Shown in pieces: positions 2,355-16,474 of a stretch of 64,000 nt of DNA. The translations under genes were made by a program, and so were the position numbers. Position 1 is the stretch's first letter; every line of letters begins with the position of its first letter. Source of the DNA: an uncultured Gammaproteobacteria bacterium (GTDB lineage Bacteria > Pseudomonadota > Gammaproteobacteria > CAWCPV01); contig CAWCPV010000003.1 of assembly GCA_963797555.1 (NCBI GenBank), positions 128,001 through 192,000 of the forward strand, read 5' to 3'. The notes beneath the pieces were generated by a model. That model worked only from the letters and a program-made list of their open reading frames with translations, was not told the DNA's origin and did not search any database.

Positions 2355-5198
2355 ATGGCACGTATAGCCGGCAAGAAGAGGCAGCCCCAGAGCCGTAGGG
2401 TCCAGCGCCCGCCGCAGGCGCGCCCTCGGTTCCAGGGCTGGGCGACCAGCGACCAGGACGAGATCGAGCGCCGCCGCCTGCGCGGCATCGAGGAAGACAT
2501 CGTCGTCGAGCCCCTGGAGCCGGAACACGGGCCCTTCGGCACCTTCCTGGCCCGTTCCGGCAGCGGCGAGACCTACCATGTGGAGATCCGCTCGCTGGTC
2601 GACCCGGCCAACTCCTGCGAGTGCCCTGACCATCAGGTCAACCGCCTGGGGACCTGCAAGCACATCGAGGCCACGCTGCACCGCCTGCGCAAGGAGGATA
2701 AGGGCGAGCTAGCGGACTGGACGGCCAGAGGCCCGCGGCGTGTCGAGGTGTACCTGGACCGGCGCGACGGACGGCTCAGGATCGCCTGGCCGAAGGGCAG
2801 CCGCGGCCGCTCGCAGGCGCGCGAGATGCTCTCGCCGTTCTTCTCCGCCGACGACACCCTGCTGGCCGACCCCCTGACCGCGGTGTCCGCCCTGCGCCGC
2901 GAGGTCGACAGGACCGCTCCCGGCCTGCGGGCCAAGATCCGCCTCTCCCGCCACTTGGAGCCCTGGCTGGAAGACCTGCGCCACGTGGCCGAACGGGAGC
3001 GCGCCCGCGCGGCCTTCCTGGCGGACGTAGCGAGCGGCAAGCGCAGCCTCGACGTCGTCAGCGTCCCGCTCTATCCCTATCAGCGGGAGGGCATGCTCCA
3101 CCTCGCCTTCACCGGGCGGGCACTGCTGGCGGACGAGATGGGTCTCGGCAAGACCGTCCAGGCCGTCGCCGCTTGCGAGCTGCTGCGCCGGCTGCACGGC
3201 GTCGAGCGGGTGCTGGTGATTGCACCGGCCTCCCTCAAGGCCGAGTGGGAGGAGCAGATCGCCAAGTTCACCGCCCTGCCCTCGCTCATCGTCCAGGGGC
3301 CGCGCGCTGCGAGGCTGCGACAGTATCGCGAGCGGGCCTTCTTCTATCTCATGAACTACGAGCAGGTGCGGCCGGACCGCCGGGATATCGACGAGGTCCT
3401 CGCCCCCGACGTGGTCATCCTGGACGAGGCCCAGCGCATCAAGAACTGGCAGACCAAAACGGCCGAGGCCGTGAAGCGCCTCTCGAGCCGCTACGCCTTC
3501 GTGCTCACCGGCACCCCCATCGAAAATCGCATCGACGAGCTGTACTCCATCGTCCAGTTCCTGGACCCGCACCTGTTCGGCCCCCTGTTCCGCTTCAACC
3601 GCGACTTCTACCAGCTCGACGAGCAGGGGCGGCCCGCCGGCTACAAGAACCTGGACGAGTTGCACCGGCGCTTGCGGCCGGTCATGCTGCGCCGGCGCAA
3701 GGAGGAGGTGGAGGGGCAGCTCACGGGCCGGACGGTGAACACCTTCTTCGTGTCCATGGCAGAGGAGCAGGCCGTGCGCTACGAGGAATACCAGGAAAGG
3801 GTCGCCCGCCTGGCCGCCCAGGCGCGGCGCCGGCCGCTCACCAAGGAGGAGCTGGAGAAGCTCCAGAAGTGGCTCGCCTGCATGCGCATGCTCTGCGACA
3901 CCCCGTACATCCTCGATCCGAAGTGCCGCCTCTCTCCCAAGCTCGACGAGCTGGAGAACATCCTGGCCGACCTGAGCGATGACGGCGACCACAAGATCAT
4001 CGTCTTCTCCGAGTGGGAGCGGATGCTGGAGCTGGTGCGGGAGCTTGCCGGGCGCCTCAAGCTCGACTTCGCCTGGCACACCGGAAGCACCGAGCAGGGC
4101 CGGCGCCGCAAGGAGATCCGCCGCTTCAAGGACGACCCGCAGTGCCGGCTGTTCCTGTCCACCGACTCGGGGAGCGTGGGGCTCAACCTGCAGGTCGCCG
4201 ACGTGGTGATCAACCTCGATCTGCCCTGGAATCCGGCCCGGCTGGAGCAGCGCATCGCCCGCGCCTGGCGCAAGCACCAGACCCGTGCGGTGCAGGTCAT
4301 CAACCTGGTGTGCGAGCACTCCATCGAGCACCGCATGCTGCACCTGCTGGAGCAGAAACGCACGCTGGCCCAAGGCGTGGTCGACGGTGCCGGTGAGGTC
4401 ACCGAGATGGCTCTGCCCTCCGGTCGGGCGGCCTTCCTGGAGAAGGTCGGCAGCCTTCTCGGGCAGCCGATGCCCGGAGCACGAGCCGCCGAGCACGAGC
4501 CGACCGAAGACCCCACGGAGCGGCTGCGTCAGGACATCCTGGCGCGCTGGAGCGAGCGCCTCGATCTGCTGGAGATCCACGCTGCCGGGAACGGCTCGCC
4601 CACGGTGCTCGCGGTCGTGGACCGCGCGGACGAGGCGGCTCGCACGCAGATGACACGGTCCGCGGAGGAGCATCTCGCCGGACAGTCCCCCCGCGTGGAG
4701 GTCCTGGACCGGGACACTTACGACGCAATCCAGCGGCTCATTGAAGCAGGGGTGCTGAGCCTCAACGCCCAAGGAGCGAAGACGCTGCACCACAGCCCCG
4801 CCGTTGCGACCCGGCGCGCCGGGGAGCGGGAGAAGCGTTTAGTCGAGGCACGCAAGCGGTTCGAGGACGCCCGGCGCAAGCAGCGCATGGCGCGGGTGCT
4901 CGCCGAAGGCGGCTTTCCCAGGGAAGCCCTGGCGCCCTTGCGCGAAGCCGTGGAGACGGCGCTGCAGTCGCTCGCCTGCCTGGTAGGCGAGGAGTCCGCG
5001 ACCGCCGTTCCGGCCGACTTGGTGCAGTCCAGGCTGGTCGCGGAAGGCCTGGTGTCTCCGGAGACTCCCTCGCTCGTCGCAAGATTGCGGGACGGCGCAG
5101 AGGCGGGGAGCGAAGAGCAGGCGAGGGAGCTGCTCGACATTGGGCACGGCCTCCTGGATCACGCTGCAGGCGAATTGGAGAAGCCAGCGTTCCCGTAG
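2355..5198 (+). CDS. SWIM zinc-finger / SNF2-family helicase with C-terminal extension
   Basis: SWIM motif CECPD...CKHI; helicase motifs LADEMGLGKT, ILDEAQRIKN, LTGTPIEN, GLNLQ, WNPARLEQRIAR. Confidence 0.92.
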   Translation: MARIAGKKRQPQSRRVQRPPQARPRFQGWATSDQDEIERRRLRGIEEDIVVEPLEPEHGPFGTFLARSGSGETYHVEIRSLVDPANSCECPDHQVNRLGTCKHIEATLHRLRKEDKGELADWTARGPRRVEVYLDRRDGRLRIAWPKGSRGRSQAREMLSPFFSADDTLLADPLTAVSALRREVDRTAPGLRAKIRLSRHLEPWLEDLRHVAERERARAAFLADVASGKRSLDVVSVPLYPYQREGMLHLAFTGRALLADEMGLGKTVQAVAACELLRRLHGVERVLVIAPASLKAEWEEQIAKFTALPSLIVQGPRAARLRQYRERAFFYLMNYEQVRPDRRDIDEVLAPDVVILDEAQRIKNWQTKTAEAVKRLSSRYAFVLTGTPIENRIDELYSIVQFLDPHLFGPLFRFNRDFYQLDEQGRPAGYKNLDELHRRLRPVMLRRRKEEVEGQLTGRTVNTFFVSMAEEQAVRYEEYQERVARLAAQARRRPLTKEELEKLQKWLACMRMLCDTPYILDPKCRLSPKLDELENILADLSDDGDHKIIVFSEWERMLELVRELAGRLKLDFAWHTGSTEQGRRRKEIRRFKDDPQCRLFLSTDSGSVGLNLQVADVVINLDLPWNPARLEQRIARAWRKHQTRAVQVINLVCEHSIEHRMLHLLEQKRTLAQGVVDGAGEVTEMALPSGRAAFLEKVGSLLGQPMPGARAAEHEPTEDPTERLRQDILARWSERLDLLEIHAAGNGSPTVLAVVDRADEAARTQMTRSAEEHLAGQSPRVEVLDRDTYDAIQRLIEAGVLSLNAQGAKTLHHSPAVATRRAGEREKRLVEARKRFEDARRKQRMARVLAEGGFPREALAPLREAVETALQSLACLVGEESATAVPADLVQSRLVAEGLVSPETPSLVARLRDGAEAGSEEQARELLDIGHGLLDHAAGELEKPAFP

Positions 5199-7429: not shown

Positions 7430-9502
7430 TCACATCTTCAGGTCATCCAGAAACTCGGATGCCGGCTCCACGCCGGTGACGAGCAGGTCATCGCGGGCTC
7501 GGGTGCAGGCGACGTACAGCAGATGTCGCTCGGTGTCGTAGACCTCTTCCAGATCGGCATCATCGGCCACGGTCTCGATACGCGCCTGTAGCGGAATGAC
7601 CTCGTCGTCACAGGCCATCACCGCCACCGCTTTGAACTCCAGTCCTTTGACCAGATGCATGGTGCTGACCGAAAGCTGACCACTGACCGTTTCCACGTGC
7701 TCGTCCAGCACCTTGGACGGCAATCCGGCCTGGGCCGCCGCCGCGCGGGCGCGGTCCAGCTCCGCGTCCGATCGAACGAATACTCCGATCTCATGAGGTG
7801 CCATCCCCTCGTGACCGCGCTCTGCCAGCCAGGCGCCGACCGCGCTGATCTCCTCCTCTTGGCTGTCGAAGGTGCGGATTTGAGGGGCCGGCCCGTTGAA
7901 CAGCGACACCGTGCCGCGCCGTTCCTCGGCATTGCCGTCCACATCGGATAGCTCCGGCCCCAGCAGGCGGTCGGCCTGCATCCGGATCTGATGCGAGGTG
8001 CGGTAGTTGACGTGCAGGGTGCGCGAGCGCCCGCGTATATCCACGCCGAGCGACTTCCACGAAAAGGGTTGCTGGAAGATGCGCTGGCCGAGATCGCCCG
8101 CGAAGAACAGGCCGTTCGTTCGATCCGCCCCGAGCGCGGCGAGGAAACGCAACTCCGCGACGCCGACATCCTGCGCTTCATCTACCACGACGTGCTCGAA
8201 GGGCGGATGTTCGCGGTCGGCCAACCGGGCGGCCAGGCGGGTGAACAGGCCCGAGTGAGTGATGATGCCTTCAGCCTTCAGGCGTGCACGCACGGCATCG
8301 AAGACGGACCAGACTGCTGCCCGCTGCGGCTCCGGCAGGCGCGTTTTCCTGCCCAAGCGCTTGACGTTGCGATAGGCCTCCCAGCTCTCCACCTGCCACG
8401 CATCCACCAGTTCCTCCCACTCGGCCACTAAGAAATTGAGGTTGAACCTCTGACCGCCGACCTCTGCCGCGGCCTCCGCCAGTCGCTGCCGAATCATGTC
8501 GCGGGAGGCGATGCGCGGGCGGCCGAAGTGGCGCTCGTAGAGCCGCTCACCGATGGCGTTCGTGGCATGCACCTCCAGGCGCTCGGCCAGGCGCGGCTCG
8601 TTGCTGATCAAGCGCCTGAGTTTGGTGCGCAGCGCATTCGCCAGAGCGTCGGAGAAGGTGGTCAGCAGCACGCGGGCTTCGGGATGGCTGCGAGCGAGAA
8701 ACACCGCCCGGTGCAGAGCGACGATGGTCTTGCCCGTACCCGCCGAGCCGGAGACGCGCGCCGGGCCGCTGTAGTCGCGCTCCACCCACTGGCGCTGCGC
8801 GGGGTGGAGAAAGACCATCCACTTCTCCCACGGAAACGCCAGCGCGCGCTCCAGCTCCTCGATGTCGCTCATTACCCGGAAGCGGCGCTGAGCGTCCGGG
8901 TGACTGTAGGGGTCGGCGCCCGCGGCAACGGGTTGGCTGACCTGCGGCCTGCCGCCCGTGGCCAACTCCAGCAGAGCCTCGGCCGCCTCGGCGGGCAAAT
9001 GGTCGGCGATTGCCAGCAGGCTGTCTTCGTCGGCCTGGCGTACGTCGCCCAGCCACTCTGCCGGCACACCGTAGCTCAGCAGCTCATCGTCGGTGCGATG
9101 CGCGAACAGAAGCGGCTCGGCAGGGGCAGGTCGCGGAACCTCGATGTACTTCGGTACGGCGACCTCCTCCACCCGCTCGCGGATCTCCACCCACTGTGCC
9201 GCCCCGGTCTTGAAGTGGGTTTCCAGCTTGCGGCGGTTCGCCCACTCGTACGCCTCGTCGTGGTGATCGACGTAGCACAGCAGCAGGCTGTGCTCGGTCC
9301 TGTGCACGATGAGCCGAATATCACTGCTCACCCGCACCGACCAGAAGTTCTTGTCCCTGGCCTTGTCCAGCTTGTGGAAGCTCAGGCCCGGACCCGCGGG
9401 GTTCAGTTGCAGGTCGAAGGCCGTGGTCTTGACCGCCTTCTGCTCCTCGCCGGTGAGCTTGGCGAGGCTGTCGGTAAAGGTGTCGGAGATGCGGAAATTC
9501 AT
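7430..9502 (-). CDS. UvrD-like SF1 helicase with N-terminal RelE-like domain
   Basis: GSAGTGKT, VVDEAQD, GDLGQRIF, NYRT, KGLEF and YVACTRAR motifs. The N-terminal ~90 aa (LSFHKL...WSVRVSSDIRLI) resemble RelE/ParE. Confidence 0.88.
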   Translation of the reverse strand: MNFRISDTFTDSLAKLTGEEQKAVKTTAFDLQLNPAGPGLSFHKLDKARDKNFWSVRVSSDIRLIVHRTEHSLLLCYVDHHDEAYEWANRRKLETHFKTGAAQWVEIRERVEEVAVPKYIEVPRPAPAEPLLFAHRTDDELLSYGVPAEWLGDVRQADEDSLLAIADHLPAEAAEALLELATGGRPQVSQPVAAGADPYSHPDAQRRFRVMSDIEELERALAFPWEKWMVFLHPAQRQWVERDYSGPARVSGSAGTGKTIVALHRAVFLARSHPEARVLLTTFSDALANALRTKLRRLISNEPRLAERLEVHATNAIGERLYERHFGRPRIASRDMIRQRLAEAAAEVGGQRFNLNFLVAEWEELVDAWQVESWEAYRNVKRLGRKTRLPEPQRAAVWSVFDAVRARLKAEGIITHSGLFTRLAARLADREHPPFEHVVVDEAQDVGVAELRFLAALGADRTNGLFFAGDLGQRIFQQPFSWKSLGVDIRGRSRTLHVNYRTSHQIRMQADRLLGPELSDVDGNAEERRGTVSLFNGPAPQIRTFDSQEEEISAVGAWLAERGHEGMAPHEIGVFVRSDAELDRARAAAAQAGLPSKVLDEHVETVSGQLSVSTMHLVKGLEFKAVAVMACDDEVIPLQARIETVADDADLEEVYDTERHLLYVACTRARDDLLVTGVEPASEFLDDLKM

Positions 9503-9506
9503 CGGG

Positions 9507-9923
9507 CTACCGGCGCATGTACGAAAAGCGCGGAGCCATTCTCTGTGCCTGATCCATCCAGAAGTGCTTCAGCTCACTGTCCGGAAGATCGCGCGAGTCG
9601 TGCCAGCCTATGATGTTGGCGTCCTGAGGGTACGGTTTGCCGTCCGCGTCAAACCCCAGACCGATTGCAAACACCGCTTCGGCAGGGCCGACGCCGCGGC
9701 CAATTGCCGGCCTTGGTGCGTGTTTGTCAAAGTACGTCGAGCAGATTTCCCAAACCTGTGCCTCGGTCAGGTGCTGCGACCGGCAAACCGATGTCTCCAG
9801 TCTTCCGTTAGGCATCTTGTCTCGGCGCCGGGGCATCAGGCGTGAATAGTGAATCGAGTTGGTTCTCTTGACCACGTGTTCGGGCCGAAACACAAAGGTG
9901 CTTAACGATTCATCAGGCTGCAC
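9507..9923 (-). CDS. Hypothetical protein, third gene of the TIGR04255 cassette (start uncertain; in-frame GTG at 9923)
   Basis: Open frame overlapping the stop of the upstream gene; contains LETSVCR...DANIIGW. Confidence 0.6.
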   Translation of the reverse strand: MQPDESLSTFVFRPEHVVKRTNSIHYSRLMPRRRDKMPNGRLETSVCRSQHLTEAQVWEICSTYFDKHAPRPAIGRGVGPAEAVFAIGLGFDADGKPYPQDANIIGWHDSRDLPDSELKHFWMDQAQRMAPRFSYMRR

Positions 9924-10461
9924 GTCTGACGGCAGCAAGCGCGTAGAGCCGGCCAACGTATCGGACCACATCGTCAAGAGACTCTTCAAGAGCGCTGCGA
10001 CTCGTCGCATCAATTGACTGCCAGGCATGAATCCCTCCCTCGCTCCCAAACTGACCGGCAAAATTGATCTTTCCGTGTTCGCCAACGCTCACAGAAAACA
10101 TCCGAGTGGTGTCGACCGACCAACTTATGCAGATCTCCCCGTCGAATTCGGGTATCAGATCCGGCGCTGGTGTGCCTTTCGGGAGCAAAGCGAACAAAGT
10201 CGCGGCGATTCTTGCCGCAAGATTTATCGTGTGGTCCGTGACAGGAACCGCTCCACCACTGTCCCAGTCGGCATTGCGGCACTCATTGCCTATGCCACCC
10301 AACGCTGCCTCAATAGTCGGGAGCCAATCCGATGCGCTTCTACTCAGGTAGTTTCGTTCCTTTTCCCATGAGCGCTGAATCGCGCGGCTACCGTCGCTGA
10401 CGGGCTCATAGTCGTCGTTATCGATTAGATGCAAACCCTGCATCGCGATCGCAGTGCTCAT
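9913..10461 (-). CDS. Hypothetical protein
   Basis: 182-aa ORF with an ATGA overlap with the upstream gene; contains ADWDSGGAVP...PDLIPEFDGEICISW. Confidence 0.7.
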   Translation of the reverse strand: MSTAIAMQGLHLIDNDDYEPVSDGSRAIQRSWEKERNYLSRSASDWLPTIEAALGGIGNECRNADWDSGGAVPVTDHTINLAARIAATLFALLPKGTPAPDLIPEFDGEICISWSVDTTRMFSVSVGEHGKINFAGQFGSEGGIHAWQSIDATSRSALEESLDDVVRYVGRLYALAAVRRAA

Positions 10462-11207
10462 TCGTACAACTCGGCTGACGCCTCAGTGATGCTGCTGAAG
10501 AAGGTACGATTTTTCAGTTCCCGCAGGCGTTCAAGAATTTTCCACAGCCGTCCGTCCGTTGAAACCAAATCAGTCACCATGAATGCATCAACATCCAGAA
10601 TTACCGGCGCCGGCCCCGTCGGTGGAGTCGTCTCGAGCGCCAACGTTAAATTCACACGGGCGGTGCTTTCGACTTCGACCAACTGGAATCGCTGAAAAAA
10701 CGATGCCACAGCCTGTGGAGCTTCGTCTGGAACATCCACCAGCTTGCGAAGATAAGTCTGGTACGAGCCCCCCTGCCGCAAGGGGAGTTGAAGATTGTTG
10801 ATGAAACGCGTGGCGACCCGAGTCACACGCACCGGCCCGAGTCGCTCCGCGTAGACCGCCCAGACGCGCCTTGTCTCTTCGACCAATCTGCTCCACTCCT
10901 CGTACGGCGGCAGTCGACTCAGCGTGAACCCCGAAAGCCGGCACTGGGCGACGTACTTTTCATCCAACGAATGTAACCGCAACCCCACCTGCGCGGACTC
11001 GGCGGTGCTCTCCGGCTGCTGCCCGTCGGATGTCAGCTTAAAACCGAAAAAGCCCTGCGAAATCGGATTCTTCAGGTAGTAGCCGAAATCCGGCGTGCCA
11101 AATGCTTCCTTCAGTCCAGCAAAGGTGAGGTCGTGGCGTGGGACCACGTGAATATCGATCAGCGCTTCCGTGATCGGTGCATTCGGCAGATGTCGCTGCC
11201 TAGCCAT
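10458..11207 (-). CDS. TIGR04255-family protein
   Basis: Family pattern LPNAPITEALIDI...LPPYEEW...RVATRFIN...ILDVD...LRELKNRTFF. Confidence 0.8.
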   Translation of the reverse strand: MARQRHLPNAPITEALIDIHVVPRHDLTFAGLKEAFGTPDFGYYLKNPISQGFFGFKLTSDGQQPESTAESAQVGLRLHSLDEKYVAQCRLSGFTLSRLPPYEEWSRLVEETRRVWAVYAERLGPVRVTRVATRFINNLQLPLRQGGSYQTYLRKLVDVPDEAPQAVASFFQRFQLVEVESTARVNLTLALETTPPTGPAPVILDVDAFMVTDLVSTDGRLWKILERLRELKNRTFFSSITEASAELYE

Positions 11208-11308
11208 GACTTGACCGGCTGGGCCGGCTCCAGCGTCTGAGATTGCGACACCAATTTACCGCAGTCCGCCTCGGTGTCCGGTGAGGAACTGGGGAGAGAT
11301 CCACTACG

Positions 11309-14300
11309 TTAAACACGAAACACCTTCATCACCTCATCCCCCAGGTGATTGATGACCTTCACCGCGATCCGCCCCGACTTCGGCTTGTCGAAGGGCCGGG
11401 AAGTGTCGCTGTTGAGCGTGGCCCAGGCGTCTTCGTTGATCTCGGCTTTGAGGGTGGTCTTGAGCGCCTTGTAGGGGTCGTTGGCGCCGAGGAAGTAGGC
11501 GTGGCGGACGAAGAAGGCTTCCATGTTGTAGTCGGTGTCGATGAACCAGCAGGCGATGCCTTCGGCACCGTCGCTGCGGACTTCGCCGGTGTTGGGGTGG
11601 AAGACGTCCACGCCGTGGACGGTGACCTGTGACTTGTGGTCTGTGGTCAGTGAAAGCGGGAAATCTGCGGCGCTCAGGCTCTGGAGCGCAGCGAGCGTTT
11701 GAGTCCGTTGAGCATTCGACCAACGTCCGCCGCCTGAGCCTGTAACAGGGCAATTTTTTCCTGTGTGACCATCCCGAGTCTTTCCGCCAGTATCAAAAAC
11801 GTCTCTGTCTCCGCCAGAGAGCCGCTGGCGATCCCCAGGAACTGGAGAAACTCCCCTGTTCCCGACCGTTCCGCTCCCTCCGCGATATTCGCTGCTATCG
11901 ATACTGCCGCCCGCCTGATCTGGCTGGTCAGACCGTATTTCTCTTCCGGCGGGAACTGAGCAGAGACGCGATAGACCCTCTCGGCCAGCTCGATTGATTT
12001 CTTCCAAACTTCCAAGTCCTGATAGCTCTTTAACGTACTCATAATTCGCAACCATCCCGCCGTTTCTAGCCACTAACCACTGCCCACTGGTCACCGTAAT
12101 GTCCGGCTCGCCGAAGATGACGAAGAGGTTGCCCTTGCCGGTGTTCTTGAGGTCGTCGGCCATGTGCAGGTCGGCGTTCATGCGCGCCTTGAGCACGGGG
12201 ATGCGGCCGAGGTTCTTGAAGTCCGAGGAATGCGCGTCGTAGTTGAAGGCGCAGGCGATGAGCACGTCGAAGCCGGCATCGCCGGCCTCGCGGGCAGCGG
12301 CGACCAGATCGGGGCGCGAGACGGTGCCGAACTCGGGGCCGATGAAGATTCCAGCACGGTATCCCGAGCGGGAATCGGTGGCCTGTGACCCGTGGTCGGT
12401 GCTGGAATCAGTGGCTAGTGACTTGTGGTCGGTGGCTTGTCTTTCTCCGCTAACCACTGGCCACTGGTCACTGACCACTGTCCCAGCGGTGGTCTGTGGC
12501 CCGTGGTCAGTGGCTTGTATTGGTTTTTCCCTAATCACCGACCACTGGTCACTGGCCACTGTCCCAACGGCGCAGACCAGCTCGCCCGGCCAGGGGGTGA
12601 GCGAGGTGAAGCTGATCTTGTCGTCCTTGTGCGCTTGCTGTACGCCCGCGGTCTTGAGATTCTCCAGGATGATCTGCACAAAGTCGCGCTCCTGGCCGTA
12701 ACCCTCCGTGGGCTCGGCCGCGGTGTCGATCAGCTCGTCGTTCTCGTCCACCGCCAGCACGCGGTGCGGCGACAGGCTCTCGACGGTGAACGGCCCGGCG
12801 ACGCGGACGATTCTCTTGTCCTCATACGGCTTGTCGTAGAGGTACTCGAACCCGGCCTTGGCGGCGATGGAGGCGTCGATCTCTTTCTGTCGCGCAATCC
12901 TCGCGCTCCAGAAAGCAGTGATCAGTGACTGAGTGGCTTGTGGCCAGTTAGTGGGACGTTCGCGCGGGATTTCCCATTCTTCCAGGGTTCTTTTCTGACC
13001 ACCGGCCACGGACAACTGATCACGGAGCGATGCGAGCGTTAGCTCGTAACGCTCCCAGATGACGTTGATCTCGGCGTTGTTGGCAATGGATTTTAGGGTG
13101 ATGTGCGGCACGCGCTCGTAGACGAAGCCCTGTCTCAGTGACTCGTGGCCAGTGACTTGCGGTTTGCTTTTCAGGTCACTAGCCACTGACCACCGACCAC
13201 TGATTTCCGCTTCCTTGATCTGCCCCTCGCGGCTGTCGGCGAGCAGGTAGTAGGGGTAGCGCGCGCCCATGATGCGCGCACGGGCCAGGGCGAGGGCGAC
13301 GCGGGAGGTGTCGATGGTGATCCAGCGGCGGCCCCATTGCTCGGCGACGTAGGCGGTGGTGCCGGAGCCGCACGTGGGGTCGAGGACGAGGTCGCCGGGG
13401 TCGGTGGCCATAAGCAGGCACCGTTGGACGACCTTTTCGGATGTTTCCACAACGTATCGCTTCTCCGAGGCGAAGCCCGCAATCCCGGTGTCGCTCCATA
13501 CGTTGTCCTCAGGGAATGCCGCGAAATCATCGAAGTAGCGAACGTAGTAGAGCCCCTTGCCGGTAGAGCTCAGCCGCCCGGCTAGCCGTAGGCGGGACAT
13601 TCCAAGCTCATTTGTCTTCCAGCGCACCTTCTCAGACGGTCGTAGCGTTTGGCCCTCAAACTGTACTGGGAACCAAGATGCAGCACCCTCGCCCTTATCG
13701 CGCCCGACGCTCTGGCTCGTAAGATTATCGATTCGAAACACACGAGCCCCGCTGGGAAGTAGTGACGTCCCCGCCAGTTCCTCTGGCGAAATGCTTCGTT
13801 CAGACAAGTCTGACAGACGAACGCGCTTGTACGCGCTGCCTCCGATGCCCCCAATCTGCTTCAGCATGAGCGGCTGGTGATATTTCAGCCGGTCCCGCTG
13901 CCTTGCATAGAACAGAAGGAACGTCATAGGTGCCGGCAAGGTACTCCGATGTAGCACTAGCCGTCTTCGCAAAAATTATTTGAGACACAAAACTTTCAGA
14001 ACCAAACACTTCGTCCAGCAAACTGCGCAGCACGTGTGAGTTCTCTTCGCCAATCTGCACGAATATCGATCCGGAATCCGCCAACAAATCCCTTGCCACT
14101 GTCAGCCGATCCCGCAGATAGGTCAGGTACGAGTGAATCCCATCCCGCCAGGTATCCCGAAACGCCTTGACCTGCTCCGGCTCGCGCGTGATGTGGTCGG
14201 GGTTGCCGTCCTTCACGTCGCGGCTGGTGGTGGACCACTGGAAGTTGGAGTTGAATTTGATGCCGTAGGGCGGATCGATATAGATGCACTGCACCTTGCC

Positions 14301-14813
14301 GCGCAGCCCTTCGCGCTCGGCCAAACTGGCCATCACTTGCAGGCTGTCGCCGAGGATCATGCGGTTGGACCAGTTCTGGTCGTGGCGGTAGAACTCGGTC
14401 CTGTCCACGCCCTCGGGGATGCCGTTGAAGTCCGCGAACAAGTCGAGCTGGCGCTCGACAGTGGCTAGTGGCTCGTGGTCAGTGGCCTGTTTTCCACTAG
14501 CCACTGCCCACTGCCCACTGGCCACTGATTGACGACGCAAGTCGTCAATCAAGACCTTCGGTTGGATCTTCTCCTGGATGTAGAGCGGCGGGGCCTGAAC
14601 GACGAGGTCGGACCAGTCCTGCTCGTCCTTGCCGCGCCAGACCAGTTGCGGGTCCAGGTCCCGGTTGCGGCGCTCGTAGGCGACGCGGATGGGGTCTTGC
14701 TCCTCCTTCCGCATCACCGACTGGTATTCGGCGGTGGGGATGTTCTTGCGCGTGGCTTCGTCGTGCTTGAGGGTCGCGACGGTCTTGCTGGTCGATGTCT
14801 GCCGCTTCGCCAT
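11309..14813 (-). CDS. mod: Type III restriction-modification DNA methyltransferase (Mod), with a +1 frameshift near 13923 and five repeat-derived segments
   Basis: ORF 13800-14813 has YIDPPYG (motif IV). ORF 11309-13972 has VLDPTCGSGTT (motif I) and ends GRIAVKVINHLGDEVMKVF. Removing one base at TATGAC(G)TTCCTT joins the two frames. Confidence 0.88.
11619..12097. mobile_element. IVS-like element: heptamer-repeat inverted arms enclosing the four-helix-bundle gene
   Basis: Perfect terminal inverted repeat ACGGTGACC (11619-11627) / GGTCACCGT (12089-12097), extended inward to ~32 bp by 7-nt-periodic imperfect pairing. Confidence 0.7.
11674..12042 (-). CDS. Four-helix-bundle protein (23S rRNA intervening-sequence protein / Avd-like) nested inside mod in another frame
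   Basis: SYQDLEVWKKSIELAERVY...FPPEEKYGLTSQIRRAAVSIAANIAEG...FLGIASGSLAETET is the characteristic family signature; ATG at 12042. Confidence 0.93.
   Translation of the reverse strand: MSTLKSYQDLEVWKKSIELAERVYRVSAQFPPEEKYGLTSQIRRAAVSIAANIAEGAERSGTGEFLQFLGIASGSLAETETFLILAERLGMVTQEKIALLQAQAADVGRMLNGLKRSLRSRA
12376..12566. repeat. Two tandem heptamer-repeat hairpins plus one unpaired arm, in frame within mod
   Basis: Hairpins at 12408-12480 and 12484-12561; direct repeat CCACTGGTCACTG(A/G)CCACTGTCCCA at 12461 and 12542. Confidence 0.9.
12918..13023. repeat. Heptamer-repeat inverted arms bracketing the EWEIPRE codons of mod
   Basis: GTGATCAGT (12918-12926) / ACTGATCAC (13015-13023) with GTGG/CCAC units inside. 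Confidence 0.8.
13135..13203. repeat. Heptamer-repeat hairpin within mod
   Basis: TCAGTGACTCGTGGCCAGTGAC...GTCACTAGCCACTGACCACCGACCACTGA. Confidence 0.88.
14459..14527. repeat. Heptamer-repeat hairpin within mod
   Basis: CAGTGGCTAGTGGCTCGTGGTCAGTGG-loop-CCACTAGCCACTGCCCACTGCCCACTGGCCACTG. Confidence 0.9.
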
Positions 14814-14833
14814 GTCGCTCCGGGTTCTCCCGA

Positions 14834-14869
14834 TGTCGGGTTACGGCCTGACGGCCTAGCCCGACCTAC
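14834..14869 (-). repeat. GTAG-type REP-like palindrome
   Basis: Minus strand reads GTAGGTCGGGCTAGGCCGTCAGGCCGTAACCCGACA, a GTAG tetramer followed by a hairpin, between genes. Confidence 0.65.
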
Positions 14870-15129
14870 TTCTTCTCCCGATAGACTTCACCGCGGCGGC
14901 CTACCTTGACGGTCCCCACCAGCAGTTCAGCATCCGAGACGCTGTAAAGAACGCGGTAGTTGCCCTGCCGCACACGGTAACGCTCCTGCGCGGAGAGCTG
15001 TTCGCTTCCGAGCGGACGCGGATCGTCGCGCAAGCTTTCGATACACGCGAGGATGCGCCGCGCATCCGCGCGGGGAATGCCGCGCAGGTCCTTGGCCACC
15101 GATGGCTTGACCCGCAGATCATAGCGTAC
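14866..15129 (-). pseudogene. RelE/ParE toxin lacking its start codon and antitoxin
   Basis: YDLRVKPSVAKDLRGIP...DDPRP...YRVRQGNYRVLYSV...VKVGRRGEVYR; joined directly to the res remnant. Confidence 0.8.
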
Positions 15130-15241
15130 GGCGTTCGATGATCCGCTGGGTCGGCTGGCCCTGCTCGTCGAGCTCCCAGTAACGAGCCGGATACTCGTAA
15201 GGAGAGTTGAGGATGGGCTGTTCGAAGAACTTGTTGTCCAT
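15119..15241 (-). pseudogene. res: N-terminal ~38 codons of a Type III restriction endonuclease (Res)
   Basis: MDNKFFEQPILNSPYEYPARYWELDEQGQPTQRIIERR is the typical N-terminus of the Res partners of this Mod family. It stops abruptly. Confidence 0.75.
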
Positions 15242-15458
15242 GTGTGGTATTTCTCTGATGGGCCGTACTGTCCCCAGCCCAAAGAGAAGGAGGTCACCCT
15301 TAGCCTTCCGTTCTTCTGTTCCGCGAGCGTACGAGATGGATCTCGGCAAGACCGTCTTAGGCCGCGTCGCCGGCTGCACAGCATCGAGTATGCTGGTAAT
15401 TACGCTCCCGCAAATCGGGCTTCGGCCCTTCTACCACCTCGCGCTTCACCCTTCCCCG

Positions 15459-15880
15459 TCACTCTTTGAACGGGTTCTCGATGATCAGTCCGTCGATCCG
15501 CTGGCCATGCTGCAGGTCTTCGCTGTAGAGCCGGGTACATCCGGCGTCGAGGGCGGCGGCGATGATCAGGGCGTCGTAGAAACCGTAGCGGTAGCGCGCC
15601 TGGATATCGAGGGCGCGGTGATAAAGCCCCTGGCTGGGCCATGATGCGCCACAACGGCACGAGCACTTGGTCCATGAAACGCCGCGCGTCTTCCGGGGTT
15701 GCCGGCGTTTCGAGCTTGCGGGTGATGACATGAGGGTTTCCTGAATCACCTGGAAGCTGATACCGGCTGTACCGGTTTCCAGCGCCGAGTAGATCAGTTG
15801 TTCTGAGGTCTGGCGTTGCGGGGGTCGGTCTCGTCGAACAGGTAGAGGAAGACGTTGGAGTCGATGAACTCACCGCTCAT
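15459..15880 (-). pseudogene. PIN-domain toxin, frameshifted
   Basis: Three frames together give EFIDSNVFLYLFD...VIQETL...FYDALIIAAALDAGCTRLYSEDLQHGQ...NPF. Confidence 0.8.
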
Positions 15881-16094
15881 TCATCTCGTCCCGAGTAAAC
15901 TTGCGCCCACCCGTGCGTACATAGTCCCGCAGGCGCTCCACCACGGCCATCGCCTCATCGGCCCGCTGCTTGCGCTGGCCGTAATCGGCGAGCCAGCGCC
16001 GGAACTGCTCGTTGAGCGTGGTATGCTCGGCGCGCGCGCGCTTGCGGGCCGCCTCGATGAGCTTCTCGTCGGCGCTCAGCGTGATGTTTTTCAT
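15870..16094 (-). CDS. Antitoxin (RHH-like) partner of the PIN toxin
   Basis: MKNITLSADEKLIEAAR...TTLNEQFRRWL...GRKFTRDEMNER; overlaps the toxin start. Confidence 0.8.
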   Translation of the reverse strand: MKNITLSADEKLIEAARKRARAEHTTLNEQFRRWLADYGQRKQRADEAMAVVERLRDYVRTGGRKFTRDEMNER

Positions 16095-16474
16095 GGCTCG
16101 GACCTCTCGGTGAATTCGAACACGAGCGCAGTGTACACGATTGCCGCGTGCACTCAGCGCGGGGTGCCTCGTTCTCGACCCAGGCGGCGATCATGGGGGT
16201 GCGACTCAGCCTCGATCCGATAGGCTTCGGCGATCTCAGCGCAAGCCCAGCCGCCGTGATAGCGCAGGTTGCTCACGCCCGGCACCCAGTAGGTCTCCAT
16301 AGTGGCCTGCTTCTGTCGCTTCTCCTCGTATCCAGAGAAATCGAGCCATGAATTGCGGGTGACGGCTGCTTTGGGAACGCGGGGCAGGCGGCATCACGCC
16401 ACATCATGCGGCCGCGCGGGATCGGGCGGCACCCCCAGAGGGCGACGACCGCTGAGCGCAGGCCCCCTTCGTCT

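Follow-up and report, generated by a model that had tools for sequence, protein, structure and literature searches.

A four-helix-bundle gene with heptamer-array arms nested within a Type III methyltransferase gene

Introduction

Proteins of the PF05635 family have been known since the 1990s from intervening sequences (IVS) of 23S rRNA, and the accessible sections of PMC4990558 assign no function to them. According to the same sections, the Coxiella 23S IVS has three tandem heptamers upstream of the S23p open reading frame (ORF) and a 28-bp terminal stem that is cut by RNase III (PMC4990558). Avd has a related four-helix-bundle (4HB) fold, which is described as pentameric in solved relatives in the accessible part of PMC10053308, and 18 PF05635 genes are placed inside cas loci in that of PMC3936711. 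Here we describe a PF05635 gene that lies between arrays of a 7-nt unit inside the Type III methyltransferase gene (mod) of an uncultured gammaproteobacterium. The whole stretch of DNA that was analysed (64,000 nucleotides) is referred to as the window, and positions are those of the window unless a contig is named. The 4HB gene together with its two heptamer arms is called the cassette, and mod alleles with and without it are called filled and empty, respectively.

Repeats inside genes and tandem heptamers are both familiar from other bacteria. Simple repeats switch phase-variable Type III mod genes. The palindromic elements of Rickettsia and the small inverted-repeat elements of cyanobacteria are hairpin repeats that sit in frame and are translated as an extra peptide, while the tandem heptamer repeats of cyanobacteria are known as STRR. 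The TAACTGA repeats of Beggiatoaceae form direct, intergenic, period-7 arrays; in the accessible part of that publication the terms "four helix", "S23" and "intervening sequence" have 0 occurrences each (PMC4679880). A literature search, which did not extend to subscription journals, returned no paper linking heptamer arms to PF05635 generally, nor one on the nested arrangement described below.

Results

A 4HB cassette between heptamer arms

The cassette consists of two heptamer arms, a short spacer and the 4HB gene (Table 1). An earlier note, made from the sequence alone, had proposed that the largest pair of arms in mod encloses an intact 4HB gene, which was confirmed; the extent of the element had been given as 11619-12097, and alignment with empty alleles corrected it to 11615-12097. 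The encoded protein matched PF05635 over its full length (1-106; E 4.1e-40, 136.7 bits, cut-off 33.8), as well as TIGR02436 (E 3.9e-38, 130 bits, cut-off 24) and NF008911 (146.8 bits, cut-off 137), and its solved relative is XCC0516 (2gsc_A, E 1.7e-25). These matches identify it as a 4HB protein of the 23S rRNA IVS type, as the note had supposed. The family motif is given as GxxRxxxSxxxNxxE in the accessible part of PMC3936711; its RxxxSxxxNxxE portion is present in the window protein (..RRAAVSIAANIAEG..), with the leading G off the published spacing. Besides PF05635, Pfam returned a sub-threshold bAvd-like match for this ORF and nothing else, neither a splicing domain nor a homing endonuclease. 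A PADLOC scan of both 4HB proteins of this genome, the second of which is described below, matched no model.

The 4HB gene is read in the +1 frame, one base ahead of the mod frame. In an alignment of 23 nested cassettes, read by eye, a Shine-Dalgarno sequence stands 8-12 nt ahead of the ATG and is kept in both deep groups of nested 4HB genes (A and B), as GGGAGGAUGG in most of group A and as AAGGAGA in several group B relatives.

The pairing of the heptamer arms, which had been expected from their sequence, was borne out by RNA folding. In the predicted fold of 11610-12105 (-194.1 kcal/mol, z -3.50) the two arms pair as the closing stem, and the arm duplex of the window cassette has -54.3 kcal/mol (z -4.41). 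Arm pairing was significant (z < -2) in 17 of the 23 nested cassettes.

Where empty alleles read PDI-DILDAEDGxIQVKIN-GVDVF, filled alleles read PDI-TVTSGQW...TTDHKSQVTVH-GVDVF; the cassette thus takes the place of the 15 codons DILDAEDGxIQVKIN. At the protein level no target-site duplication was evident between the two states, the native residues being replaced and not duplicated. In contigs of relatives the junction runs from 11616 to 12099 with the cassette absent. A structure model of the empty Mod homolog L032 (39-row alignment, mean pLDDT 56.6, pTM 0.38), used only for local secondary structure, has strands at 824-834 and 838-849 around the turn at the cassette site. On this low-confidence model, the cassette would replace the tip of a predicted beta-hairpin that directly precedes the highly conserved C-terminal domain of Mod, its arms taking the place of both strands.

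The mod frame is open through the cassette

A pooled set of 90 distinct 4HB coding sequences, drawn from the Mod homolog loci and from loci found with the 4HB protein, comprised 27 mod-nested copies, 62 free-standing genes and one copy with partial context. The mod frame was stop-free in all 27 nested copies, which come from across phyla, and in the copy with partial context, whereas the same relative frame was stop-free in 7 of the 62 free-standing genes (mean 4.15 stops). The other four alternative frames of the nested copies were never open (mean 3.8-7.4 stops), and the mod ORF was unbroken in most filled loci. A search with the 161-residue read-through segment in a large protein collection gave at least 274 clusters; among the best 120 of the 274, nearly all had 100% coverage and most were 1065-1170 aa long, and the clusters that bore a name among the matches listed were methyltransferases.

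The contrast between 27/27 and 7/62 open frames points to selection for translation across the cassette and indicates that Mod is read through it rather than spliced, and the C-terminal domain would still be made. The same counts speak against a removal of the cassette at the RNA level, which the earlier note had entertained. Within the 4HB gene, nucleotide differences per codon position were 0.28, 0.23 and 0.49, and amino-acid identity was highest in the 4HB frame, at 62%, compared with 41% for the mod frame and 39% for the third one. On these comparisons the 4HB frame, with its own ribosome-binding site, is the one under protein-level selection, and the 4HB protein appears to be made separately from the same RNA as Mod.

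Scattered presence on mod alleles

Mod homologs were sampled as the best 80 loci, which come from many phyla, and 23 of them had a 4HB match at the identical site, strand and relative frame. Short in-frame remnants of the 4HB gene were seen in two of those 23 loci and in one weaker match (L022, L034 and L035). Among the 65 homologs that were aligned, 45 were without the cassette. On the Mod trees the filled state required at least 11 changes with full-length sequences and 15 with the C-terminal third. Several close Mod pairs differ in state (L012/L016, L017/L079, L007/L076 and L002+L004/L056). A single origin followed by vertical descent was rejected, one clade of filled alleles costing 410 log-likelihood units (p-AU 6e-5).

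As is expected of homing elements, the cassette thus occurs sporadically and at a single site in a conserved gene, and its distribution appears to be a homing-like pattern without an encoded nuclease. Since the empty site holds 15 codons that are absent from filled alleles, the switch between states must occur by allele exchange and not by simple excision. For group B, monophyly was rejected when the first 300 Mod columns were used (p 0.009) but not with the last 340 (p 0.51), a result that fits mosaic mod genes. When only filled alleles were considered, a shared descent of the cassette and the neighbouring C-terminal third of Mod was not rejected (p-AU 0.51).

Solo period-7 segments outside the cassette were found in 14 of 20 filled or remnant alleles, compared with 5 of 45 empty ones (Fisher p 4e-6); that ORF-less hairpins of the same heptamer accompany the ORF-carrying element, as had been suggested, is supported by these numbers. 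The earlier note held that its proposal would suffer if Mod homologs lacking the 4HB gene carried the same repeats. Some of them do, namely L016, L056 and L059 by regular expression and L024, L055, L056, L059 and L060 by period-7 score, and they are a minority.

Five hairpin sites in mod

The five heptamer hairpin sites reported earlier, the cassette and four solo sites, are all present on the minus (mod) strand where they had been placed, and all sit in open mod frames. On the coding strand, each has (C)AGTGGN-type units in the 5' arm and NCCACTG-type units in the 3' arm, and the units differ from one another, which makes the arrays imperfect. The fold z across the five sites ranged from -3.3 to -6.4. 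The coding strand of hairpin 1 folded at -44.6 kcal/mol (z -6.40), that of hairpin 2 at -35.2 kcal/mol (z -4.72), that of hairpin 3 at -41.1 kcal/mol (z -3.34), and that of hairpin 4 at -99.3 kcal/mol (z -6.24), as a compound of nested hairpins.

Aligned with homologs, sites 1, 2 and 4 proved to be indels that keep the frame and fall at variable loops, hairpin 4 adding about 55 codons. Contigs of relatives lack 14451-14541 in the region of hairpin 1 and 13131-13235 in that of hairpin 2. The mod hairpins thus combine terminal inverted repeats with a tolerated in-frame insertion, as palindromic elements do. Hairpin 3 had been grouped with the other sites as a possible intervening element, but on the alignment it is not an insertion: a native segment of Mod is bracketed there at unchanged length, the arms replacing native residues that flank the conserved EEWEIPRE, and the total length is the same as in arm-less homologs. 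The arms of hairpin 3 are also present in L012 and in L016, which lacks the 4HB gene.

Confinement of the heptamer arrays

The pattern GTGRYNNGTGRYNNGTGRY, three units of the form GTGRYNN, had 16 matches in the window, every one within 11622-14486; by chance a mean of 0.01 is expected, and none of 100 shuffles reached 16. A genome-wide regular-expression search (at least three units; 5,345,739 bases) found 11 arrays, 9 of them in mod. The statement of the earlier note that the unit has no other copies in the window is therefore true and nearly true of the genome, and the finding that it named as adverse, a heptamer common throughout this genome, was not made. The confinement does not extend to genome G004, where the arrays are spread genome-wide and the sole 4HB gene is mod-nested. 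The many dispersed copies expected of miniature inverted-repeat elements were not found in the window genome, where 9 of the 11 arrays lie in mod.

An Rfam scan of 11000-15000 (E up to 1) and another of nine free-standing 4HB loci (gathering threshold) returned chance microRNA-like matches and tRNAs only, and the hairpins are thus without a described RNA family among the models scanned. No rRNA was found in 11000-15000, where the cassette sits in the mod ORF and not in a 23S rRNA helix.

Independent metagenome contigs (X1, X2 and X3) back the segments. The X3 contigs match the window exactly over 11631-11925 and 12170-12497, and the X1 and X2 contigs cross hairpin site 1 with 5-6 differences. 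Contigs of relatives skip the hairpin segments, and a few contigs agree with the window fully or almost fully over the cassette, site 4 and site 1. An assembly artefact as the source of the segments was ruled out, since independent contigs carry them. No 7-nt indels were seen in the contigs covering mod arrays, where array coverage is thin.

Free-standing 4HB genes share the design

For 4HB genes outside mod, the threshold of the period-7 signal was the 95th percentile of random windows, the 99th being inflated by other arrays in the same loci. The signal exceeded this threshold in at least one flank of 56/60 free-standing genes and in both flanks of 38/60. Considering the 44 loci with two periodic flanks, the consensus heptamers of the arms were reverse-complementary (at most one mismatch) in 36, against 252 of 2000 random pairings. 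The free-standing loci use 27 distinct heptamers, the median arm having about 4.2 units. For 37 of 56 cassettes, the genes on either side share one strand (median gaps 65 and 74 nt).

NuoC-like and NuoD-like genes flank 22 of the 62 free-standing 4HB genes, all in Alphaproteobacteria; these cassettes of the NADH dehydrogenase operon lie at ~3000-3400 in each of the 22 loci, which fall in the range L102-L155. At this orthologous site the arms match in 14 of 15 loci, yet 7 different heptamers are used, which shows that the arms co-vary. Heptamer-array arms are thus a general property of 4HB genes, both arms changing their heptamer together. The proposal that the element targets one host gene could not be upheld, as similar cassettes are found between nuoC and nuoD, in a BREX operon and, according to PMC3936711, in cas operons.

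The nearest non-mod relatives of the nested cassette are in L096, L099 and L100 (~2900-3400 in each), whose 4HB genes are 56-66% identical to that of the window. In L100, arms of the GTGGYNN type stand on both sides of the 4HB gene.

A second 4HB family and arrays in other genomes

Outside the window, the same contig (C3) carries a BREX type 1 locus with a second 4HB gene and a broken third one, both with arms of another heptamer (Table 1). All 11 genome arrays of this heptamer, GTCGTCR, lie inside C3:515248-528986, a 14-kb BREX stretch, and cognate arrays thus appear to cluster with their 4HB gene. The N-terminal part of PglX contains three in-frame repeat blocks, one of them folding at -115 kcal/mol. 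Between pglX and pglZ there is a perfect 9-unit array, and the PglX ORF seems to enter a wrong frame past about residue 505.

The four-unit form of the mod pattern was searched in other genomes; a reversed-pattern control of this search was disregarded, as it matches the same tandem arrays in another register. In G001 all four matches sit in mod, and in G004 there are 180 matches genome-wide, the sole PF05635 gene being the mod-nested one. A region of G004, an alphaproteobacterial genome, (C1:870001-1250000; L161-L178 and L180) has 86 GTGGYNN-family arrays in 380 kb, 70 of them on one strand. Many G004 arrays lie at the extreme 3' ends of ORFs, and they often grade from GC-rich to AT-rich units (GTGGCCG, GTGGCCA, GTGGCTA, GTGGTTA).

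A weak PF05635 match (E 9.6e-4, below the cut-off) was also noticed outside the window at C3:47847-48140. The sequence after it resembles the asparagine-rich template region of a diversity-generating retroelement (DGR). This gene may be a true Avd; it is 80 kb from the window start and unrelated to mod.

The host gene and its surroundings

PF01555 (N6_N4_Mtase) was matched in both mod ORFs, and mod matched the PADLOC model MTase_III PDLC03632 (E 2.3e-289). The best solved relatives of homolog L032 are the Type III Mod subunits 6k0w_B and 4zcf_A (EcoP15I Mod), and mod thus has an N6/N4 methyltransferase core of the Type III kind. The gene had been read as one frame in the earlier note; it is actually two ORFs, split by a one-base frameshift near 13925-13935, and no intact reading frame of mod is present in the window. 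The N-terminal ORF aligns to homologs up to LAGTYDV; where homologs read LAGTYDVLLWYAK, the window reads LAGTYDV and goes on in another frame as ..LLFYAR... Hairpin sites 2-4 and the complete cassette all fall in the C-terminal ORF, which also encodes the conserved C-terminal domain. The frameshift may be a true mutation or an assembly error, the two being indistinguishable because metagenome contigs lack coverage of 13478-13961.

In homolog loci an intact res gene, encoding a ResIII helicase and RE_endonuc protein of ~1010-1070 aa, is found upstream of mod. The window has no adjacent intact Res subunit, only two remnants (Table 1). As res is reduced to remnants and mod is frameshifted, this genome's host restriction system is in decay, provided that the frameshift is not an assembly error. 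Toxin-antitoxin-like genes occupy 14866-16094, the place expected of res: a ParE-like ORF (14866-15384), which in part uses the frame of res remnant 1, a PIN-domain ORF (15459-15749) and also a small ORF (15870-16094). The ParE-like and PIN genes separate the two remnants, and the arrangement suggests that these modules replaced res.

Downstream of mod are a TIGR04255-family gene (10458-11207) and two ORFs without family assignment (9913-10461 and 9507-10085). They are accompanied by a UvrD-like helicase (7430-9502), for which PADLOC gave matches to its GajB and NERD+UvrD models. A UvrD-like helicase follows mod in L032 as well. Together, the genes at 7430-11207 resemble a defence island. Within mod, the target-recognition part (13400-14100) has a G+C of 0.56, compared with ~0.63, and resembles L018, L032 and L042, not the homologs with the closest cassette; its composition and likeness would be in keeping with domain swapping between mod alleles.

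Table 1. Positions of the cassette, the hairpin sites, the host gene and related features
Feature	Position	Strand	Description
Whole 4HB cassette	11615..12097	minus	483 nt = 161 codons in mod frame; aligned with empty alleles
Cassette 5' arm	12066..12097	minus	Four to five GTGGYNN-type units; mod frame TVTSGQWLVAR
Cassette spacer	12043..12065	minus	Shine-Dalgarno-like GGCGGGAUGG
4HB gene	ATG 12042 to stop 11674	minus	122 aa; PF05635
Cassette 3' arm	11615..11655	minus	Complementary RCCACNN-type units; mod frame LTTDHKSQVTVH
Solo heptamer hairpin 1	14459..14527	minus	69 nt, in frame as SVASGQWAVASGKQATDHEPLATV; indel relative to most homologs
Solo heptamer hairpin 2	13135..13203	minus	69 nt, in frame, ..GRWSVASDLKSKPQVTGHE..; indel relative to homologs
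Hairpin 3	12918..13023	minus	Heptamer-like arms DQLSVAGGQ / WPQATQSLIT around native EEWEIPRE
Compound solo hairpin 4 (nested and adjacent arms)	12376..12566	minus	Inverted pairs I2, I3, I7
Nine of the genome's 11 arrays	11622-14488 (C3:139622-142488)		Regular expression, at least 3 units
mod N-terminal ORF	13800..14813	minus	337 aa; N6_N4_Mtase positions 1-87; out-of-frame end after frameshift
mod C-terminal ORF	11309..13972	minus	887 aa; N6_N4_Mtase positions 141-217
One-base frameshift splitting mod	13925..13935	minus	Homologs GTYDV-LLWYAK
res remnant 1	15128..15241	minus	Residues 1-38 only; tblastn, Res of L012 and L016, 82-87% identity
res remnant 2	16205..16345	minus	Residues ~947-995; tblastn
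BREX type 1 locus L181	C3:513400-531000		Outside window, same contig; BrxA, BrxC, PglX, PglZ, BrxL by Pfam
Second 4HB gene	C3:514855-515172		Between pglZ and brxL; GTCGTCR/YGACGAC arms
Broken third 4HB gene	C3:528801-528911		Upstream of brxC; GTCGTCR/YGACGAC arms

Discussion

The feature is probably a promoter-less cassette of the intervening-sequence type that sits inside a Type III mod gene with the outer frame kept open. Much of the intervening-element proposal of the earlier note is retained in this reading, namely the IVS-type gene, the paired arms and the ORF-less companions, whereas removal at the RNA level, a single target gene and DGR-like rewriting are not. The arrangement of heptamer stem arms around an ORF agrees with the Coxiella 23S IVS as described in the accessible text of PMC4990558; its heptamers and stem indicate that the classical rRNA IVS shares the cassette design. 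Such a promoter-less hitchhiker would live inside host transcripts, be they 23S rRNA, operons or ORFs, and would spread between alleles by recombination. The four other mod hairpins could be ORF-less derivatives of the same cassette family that are tolerated at surface loops and only when they keep the frame. The 4HB protein, whose solved relative is a pentamer, might bind its own heptamer arrays as RNA or single-stranded DNA, and through this binding it could control how it is itself expressed, or how the arrays are maintained and spread locally.

Several observations weigh against the cassette reading. The nested copies share ancestry, and 27/27 are therefore not independent trials; nevertheless, at 50-82% 4HB identity stops should have arisen. 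Among phylogenetically independent pairs, 5-6 were in favour of the link between cassette and solo hairpins, 0-1 went in the opposite direction and 3-4 did not differ in solo hairpins (median p 0.06), which makes the link suggestive, and the 5 empty alleles out of 45 noted above keep hairpins without a 4HB gene. The arms of site 3 "overwrite" native sequence with no change of length, which simple insertion fails to explain. In the 380 kb sampled from G004 the arrays are mostly direct, not inverted, and located at gene ends, indicating that arrays have an existence apart from hairpins. The structure model of L032 is of low confidence. With mod frameshifted and res lost in the window, nothing at this locus need be functional in this organism. 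Binding of 4HB proteins to their own arrays is something we infer purely from the pairing of family and heptamer, the co-variation of the arms, their length and the clustering of arrays.

Cleavage of the stems by RNase III, either removing the insert or throttling the mod mRNA, is an explanation that we regard as doubtful. It has in its favour strong stems at all five sites, arm pairing in most nested cassettes (17/23 with z < -2) and an architecture like that of the ORF-bearing 23S IVS with its RNase III-cut terminal stem, as given in the accessible part of PMC4990558. Cleavage without religation would, however, detach the conserved C-terminal domain of Mod, removal would end the need for an open frame that is nonetheless kept in 27/27 nested copies against 7/62 free-standing ones, and gene callers read straight through in 274 protein clusters; cleavage may still act as a partial regulatory side path. 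Gain and loss of 7-nt units could instead switch the methyltransferase on and off, seven not being divisible by three. The arrays occur in two methyltransferase genes (mod and pglX), there is the perfect 9-unit array at BREX, and the heptamer number upstream of the S23p ORF differs among Coxiella strains in the accessible text of PMC4990558. Against such contingency repeats, which we consider very improbable, stand the imperfection of the mod arrays, whose differing units slip poorly, an inverted arrangement with compensating arms that slippage does not need, the position of the mod frameshift outside any array, the lack of 7-nt length variants in the contigs examined (with thin array coverage), and the occurrence of the same design around 4HB genes in nuo operons. 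Local sequence rewriting of the DGR kind through an Avd-like protein, put forward in the earlier note, draws on a weak Avd similarity (bAvd 33.4 bits, DivGenRetAVD 31.3 bits) and is effectively refuted: both scores are below their cut-offs (40 and 80, respectively), the ORFs scanned around mod include no reverse transcriptase, and no template/variable repeat pair is present.

Both 4HB families of this genome are in defence loci, with hairpins in methyltransferase genes, and 18 PF05635 genes lie within cas loci (accessible part of PMC3936711), so the 4HB protein and its hairpins might be a host-beneficial accessory that regulates or assists methyltransferase-based immunity (Type III restriction-modification, BREX, CRISPR). 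We judge this improbable: 45/65 aligned Mod homologs do without the cassette, which is therefore dispensable, 22/62 free-standing cassettes are in the nuo operon, the classical ones are in 23S rRNA, the 4HB proteins have no PADLOC match, and defence islands tolerate insertions and transfer often anyway. Passive in-frame palindromic insertions unlinked to the 4HB gene, with a co-occurrence inherited from a repeat-rich donor genome, would account for the 180 genome-wide matches in G004, for the confinement of arrays to mod in G001 as well as in the window genome, which horizontal acquisition of the gene would lead one to expect, and for Mod alleles that are mosaic and cross phyla. They would leave unexplained why the sole PF05635 gene of G004 is mod-nested, why each 4HB family has its own heptamer with arrays clustered around it, why arrays are denser in mod (9 in 3 kb) than in the array-rich G004 region sampled (86 in 380 kb) and why arms co-vary at one orthologous site; we give this explanation little credit. 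A bolder proposal, unlikely in our estimate, is that 4HB proteins are sequence-specific readers of heptamers, each lineage being paired with its own. Protein and arrays would then make up a widespread element, as yet without a name, that resides in host transcripts and writes or maintains its cognate arrays in the DNA close by, even over coding sequence as long as the frame is kept. This proposal would explain the co-varying arms, the clustering of arrays by their cognate gene, the replacement of native Mod strands at unchanged length and the ~180 arrays of G004.

A heptamer-armed 4HB gene riding inside genes and operons looks like a common but undescribed arrangement. Its general anatomy (co-varying arms of about four units, a Shine-Dalgarno sequence and an ORF) makes the question of PF05635 function testable, with a natural specificity control in the form of two 4HB families and two heptamers in one genome, and with a tractable host gene in mod, of which filled, empty and remnant alleles are available. 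At least 274 protein clusters attest to the conservation of this two-frame arrangement within a restriction-modification gene. As the names listed for the read-through clusters are those of plain methyltransferases, the nested gene is missed by annotation and by defence-system catalogues. Should it be true that the 4HB protein reads and propagates the repeats, a new class of protein-and-repeat element shaping defence genes would be at hand; otherwise, the cassette is a clear example of a selfish element accommodated in an essential-domain protein by means of an open outer frame.

Comparison with known systems

Several described systems share single traits with the mod cassette. Avd has a related 4HB fold and is pentameric in solved relatives, in line with the 2gsc match, but the window protein is below the cut-offs of the Avd models and there is neither a reverse transcriptase among the ORFs scanned nor a template repeat. 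Inteins and homing introns are likewise present or absent at one exact site of a conserved gene, scattered on its tree and accompanied by degenerate remnants; the cassette differs from them in having no splicing domain or homing endonuclease and in that the insert stays in the mature protein. As in overprinted genes, one DNA stretch is open in two same-strand frames, both apparently used; here, however, the inner 4HB gene is an imported member of a widespread family and not a de novo one, and the outer frame conserves its openness, not its sequence.

The solo hairpins are like the in-frame palindromic elements in being short hairpin-forming repeats placed in frame at tolerated positions of a protein. 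They differ in having arms of 7-nt units, in being confined to one gene, and in that a conserved gene is carried by one of them in a different frame; the protein-level comparison gave no sign of a target-site duplication. The heptamer repeats of cyanobacteria and Beggiatoaceae have the same period of 7, lie mostly near gene ends and are common to distant phyla, and the arrays of G004 are similar. Inverted arms around a gene and in-frame hairpins are, by contrast, not part of the Beggiatoaceae repeats in the accessible text of PMC4679880.

The 23S rRNA IVS of Leptospira, Coxiella and Brucella have a PF05635 protein and complementary terminal arms that enclose the ORF, and both they and the cassette lie inside a host transcript, with no promoter evident for either. 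In Coxiella the likeness includes tandem heptamers before the ORF and a 28-bp stem equal to about four units, according to the accessible part of PMC4990558. In contrast to these IVS, the host here is a protein-coding gene, the frame of which is preserved, with the cassette apparently translated rather than cut out, and ORF-less hairpins of the same heptamer are present in the same gene.

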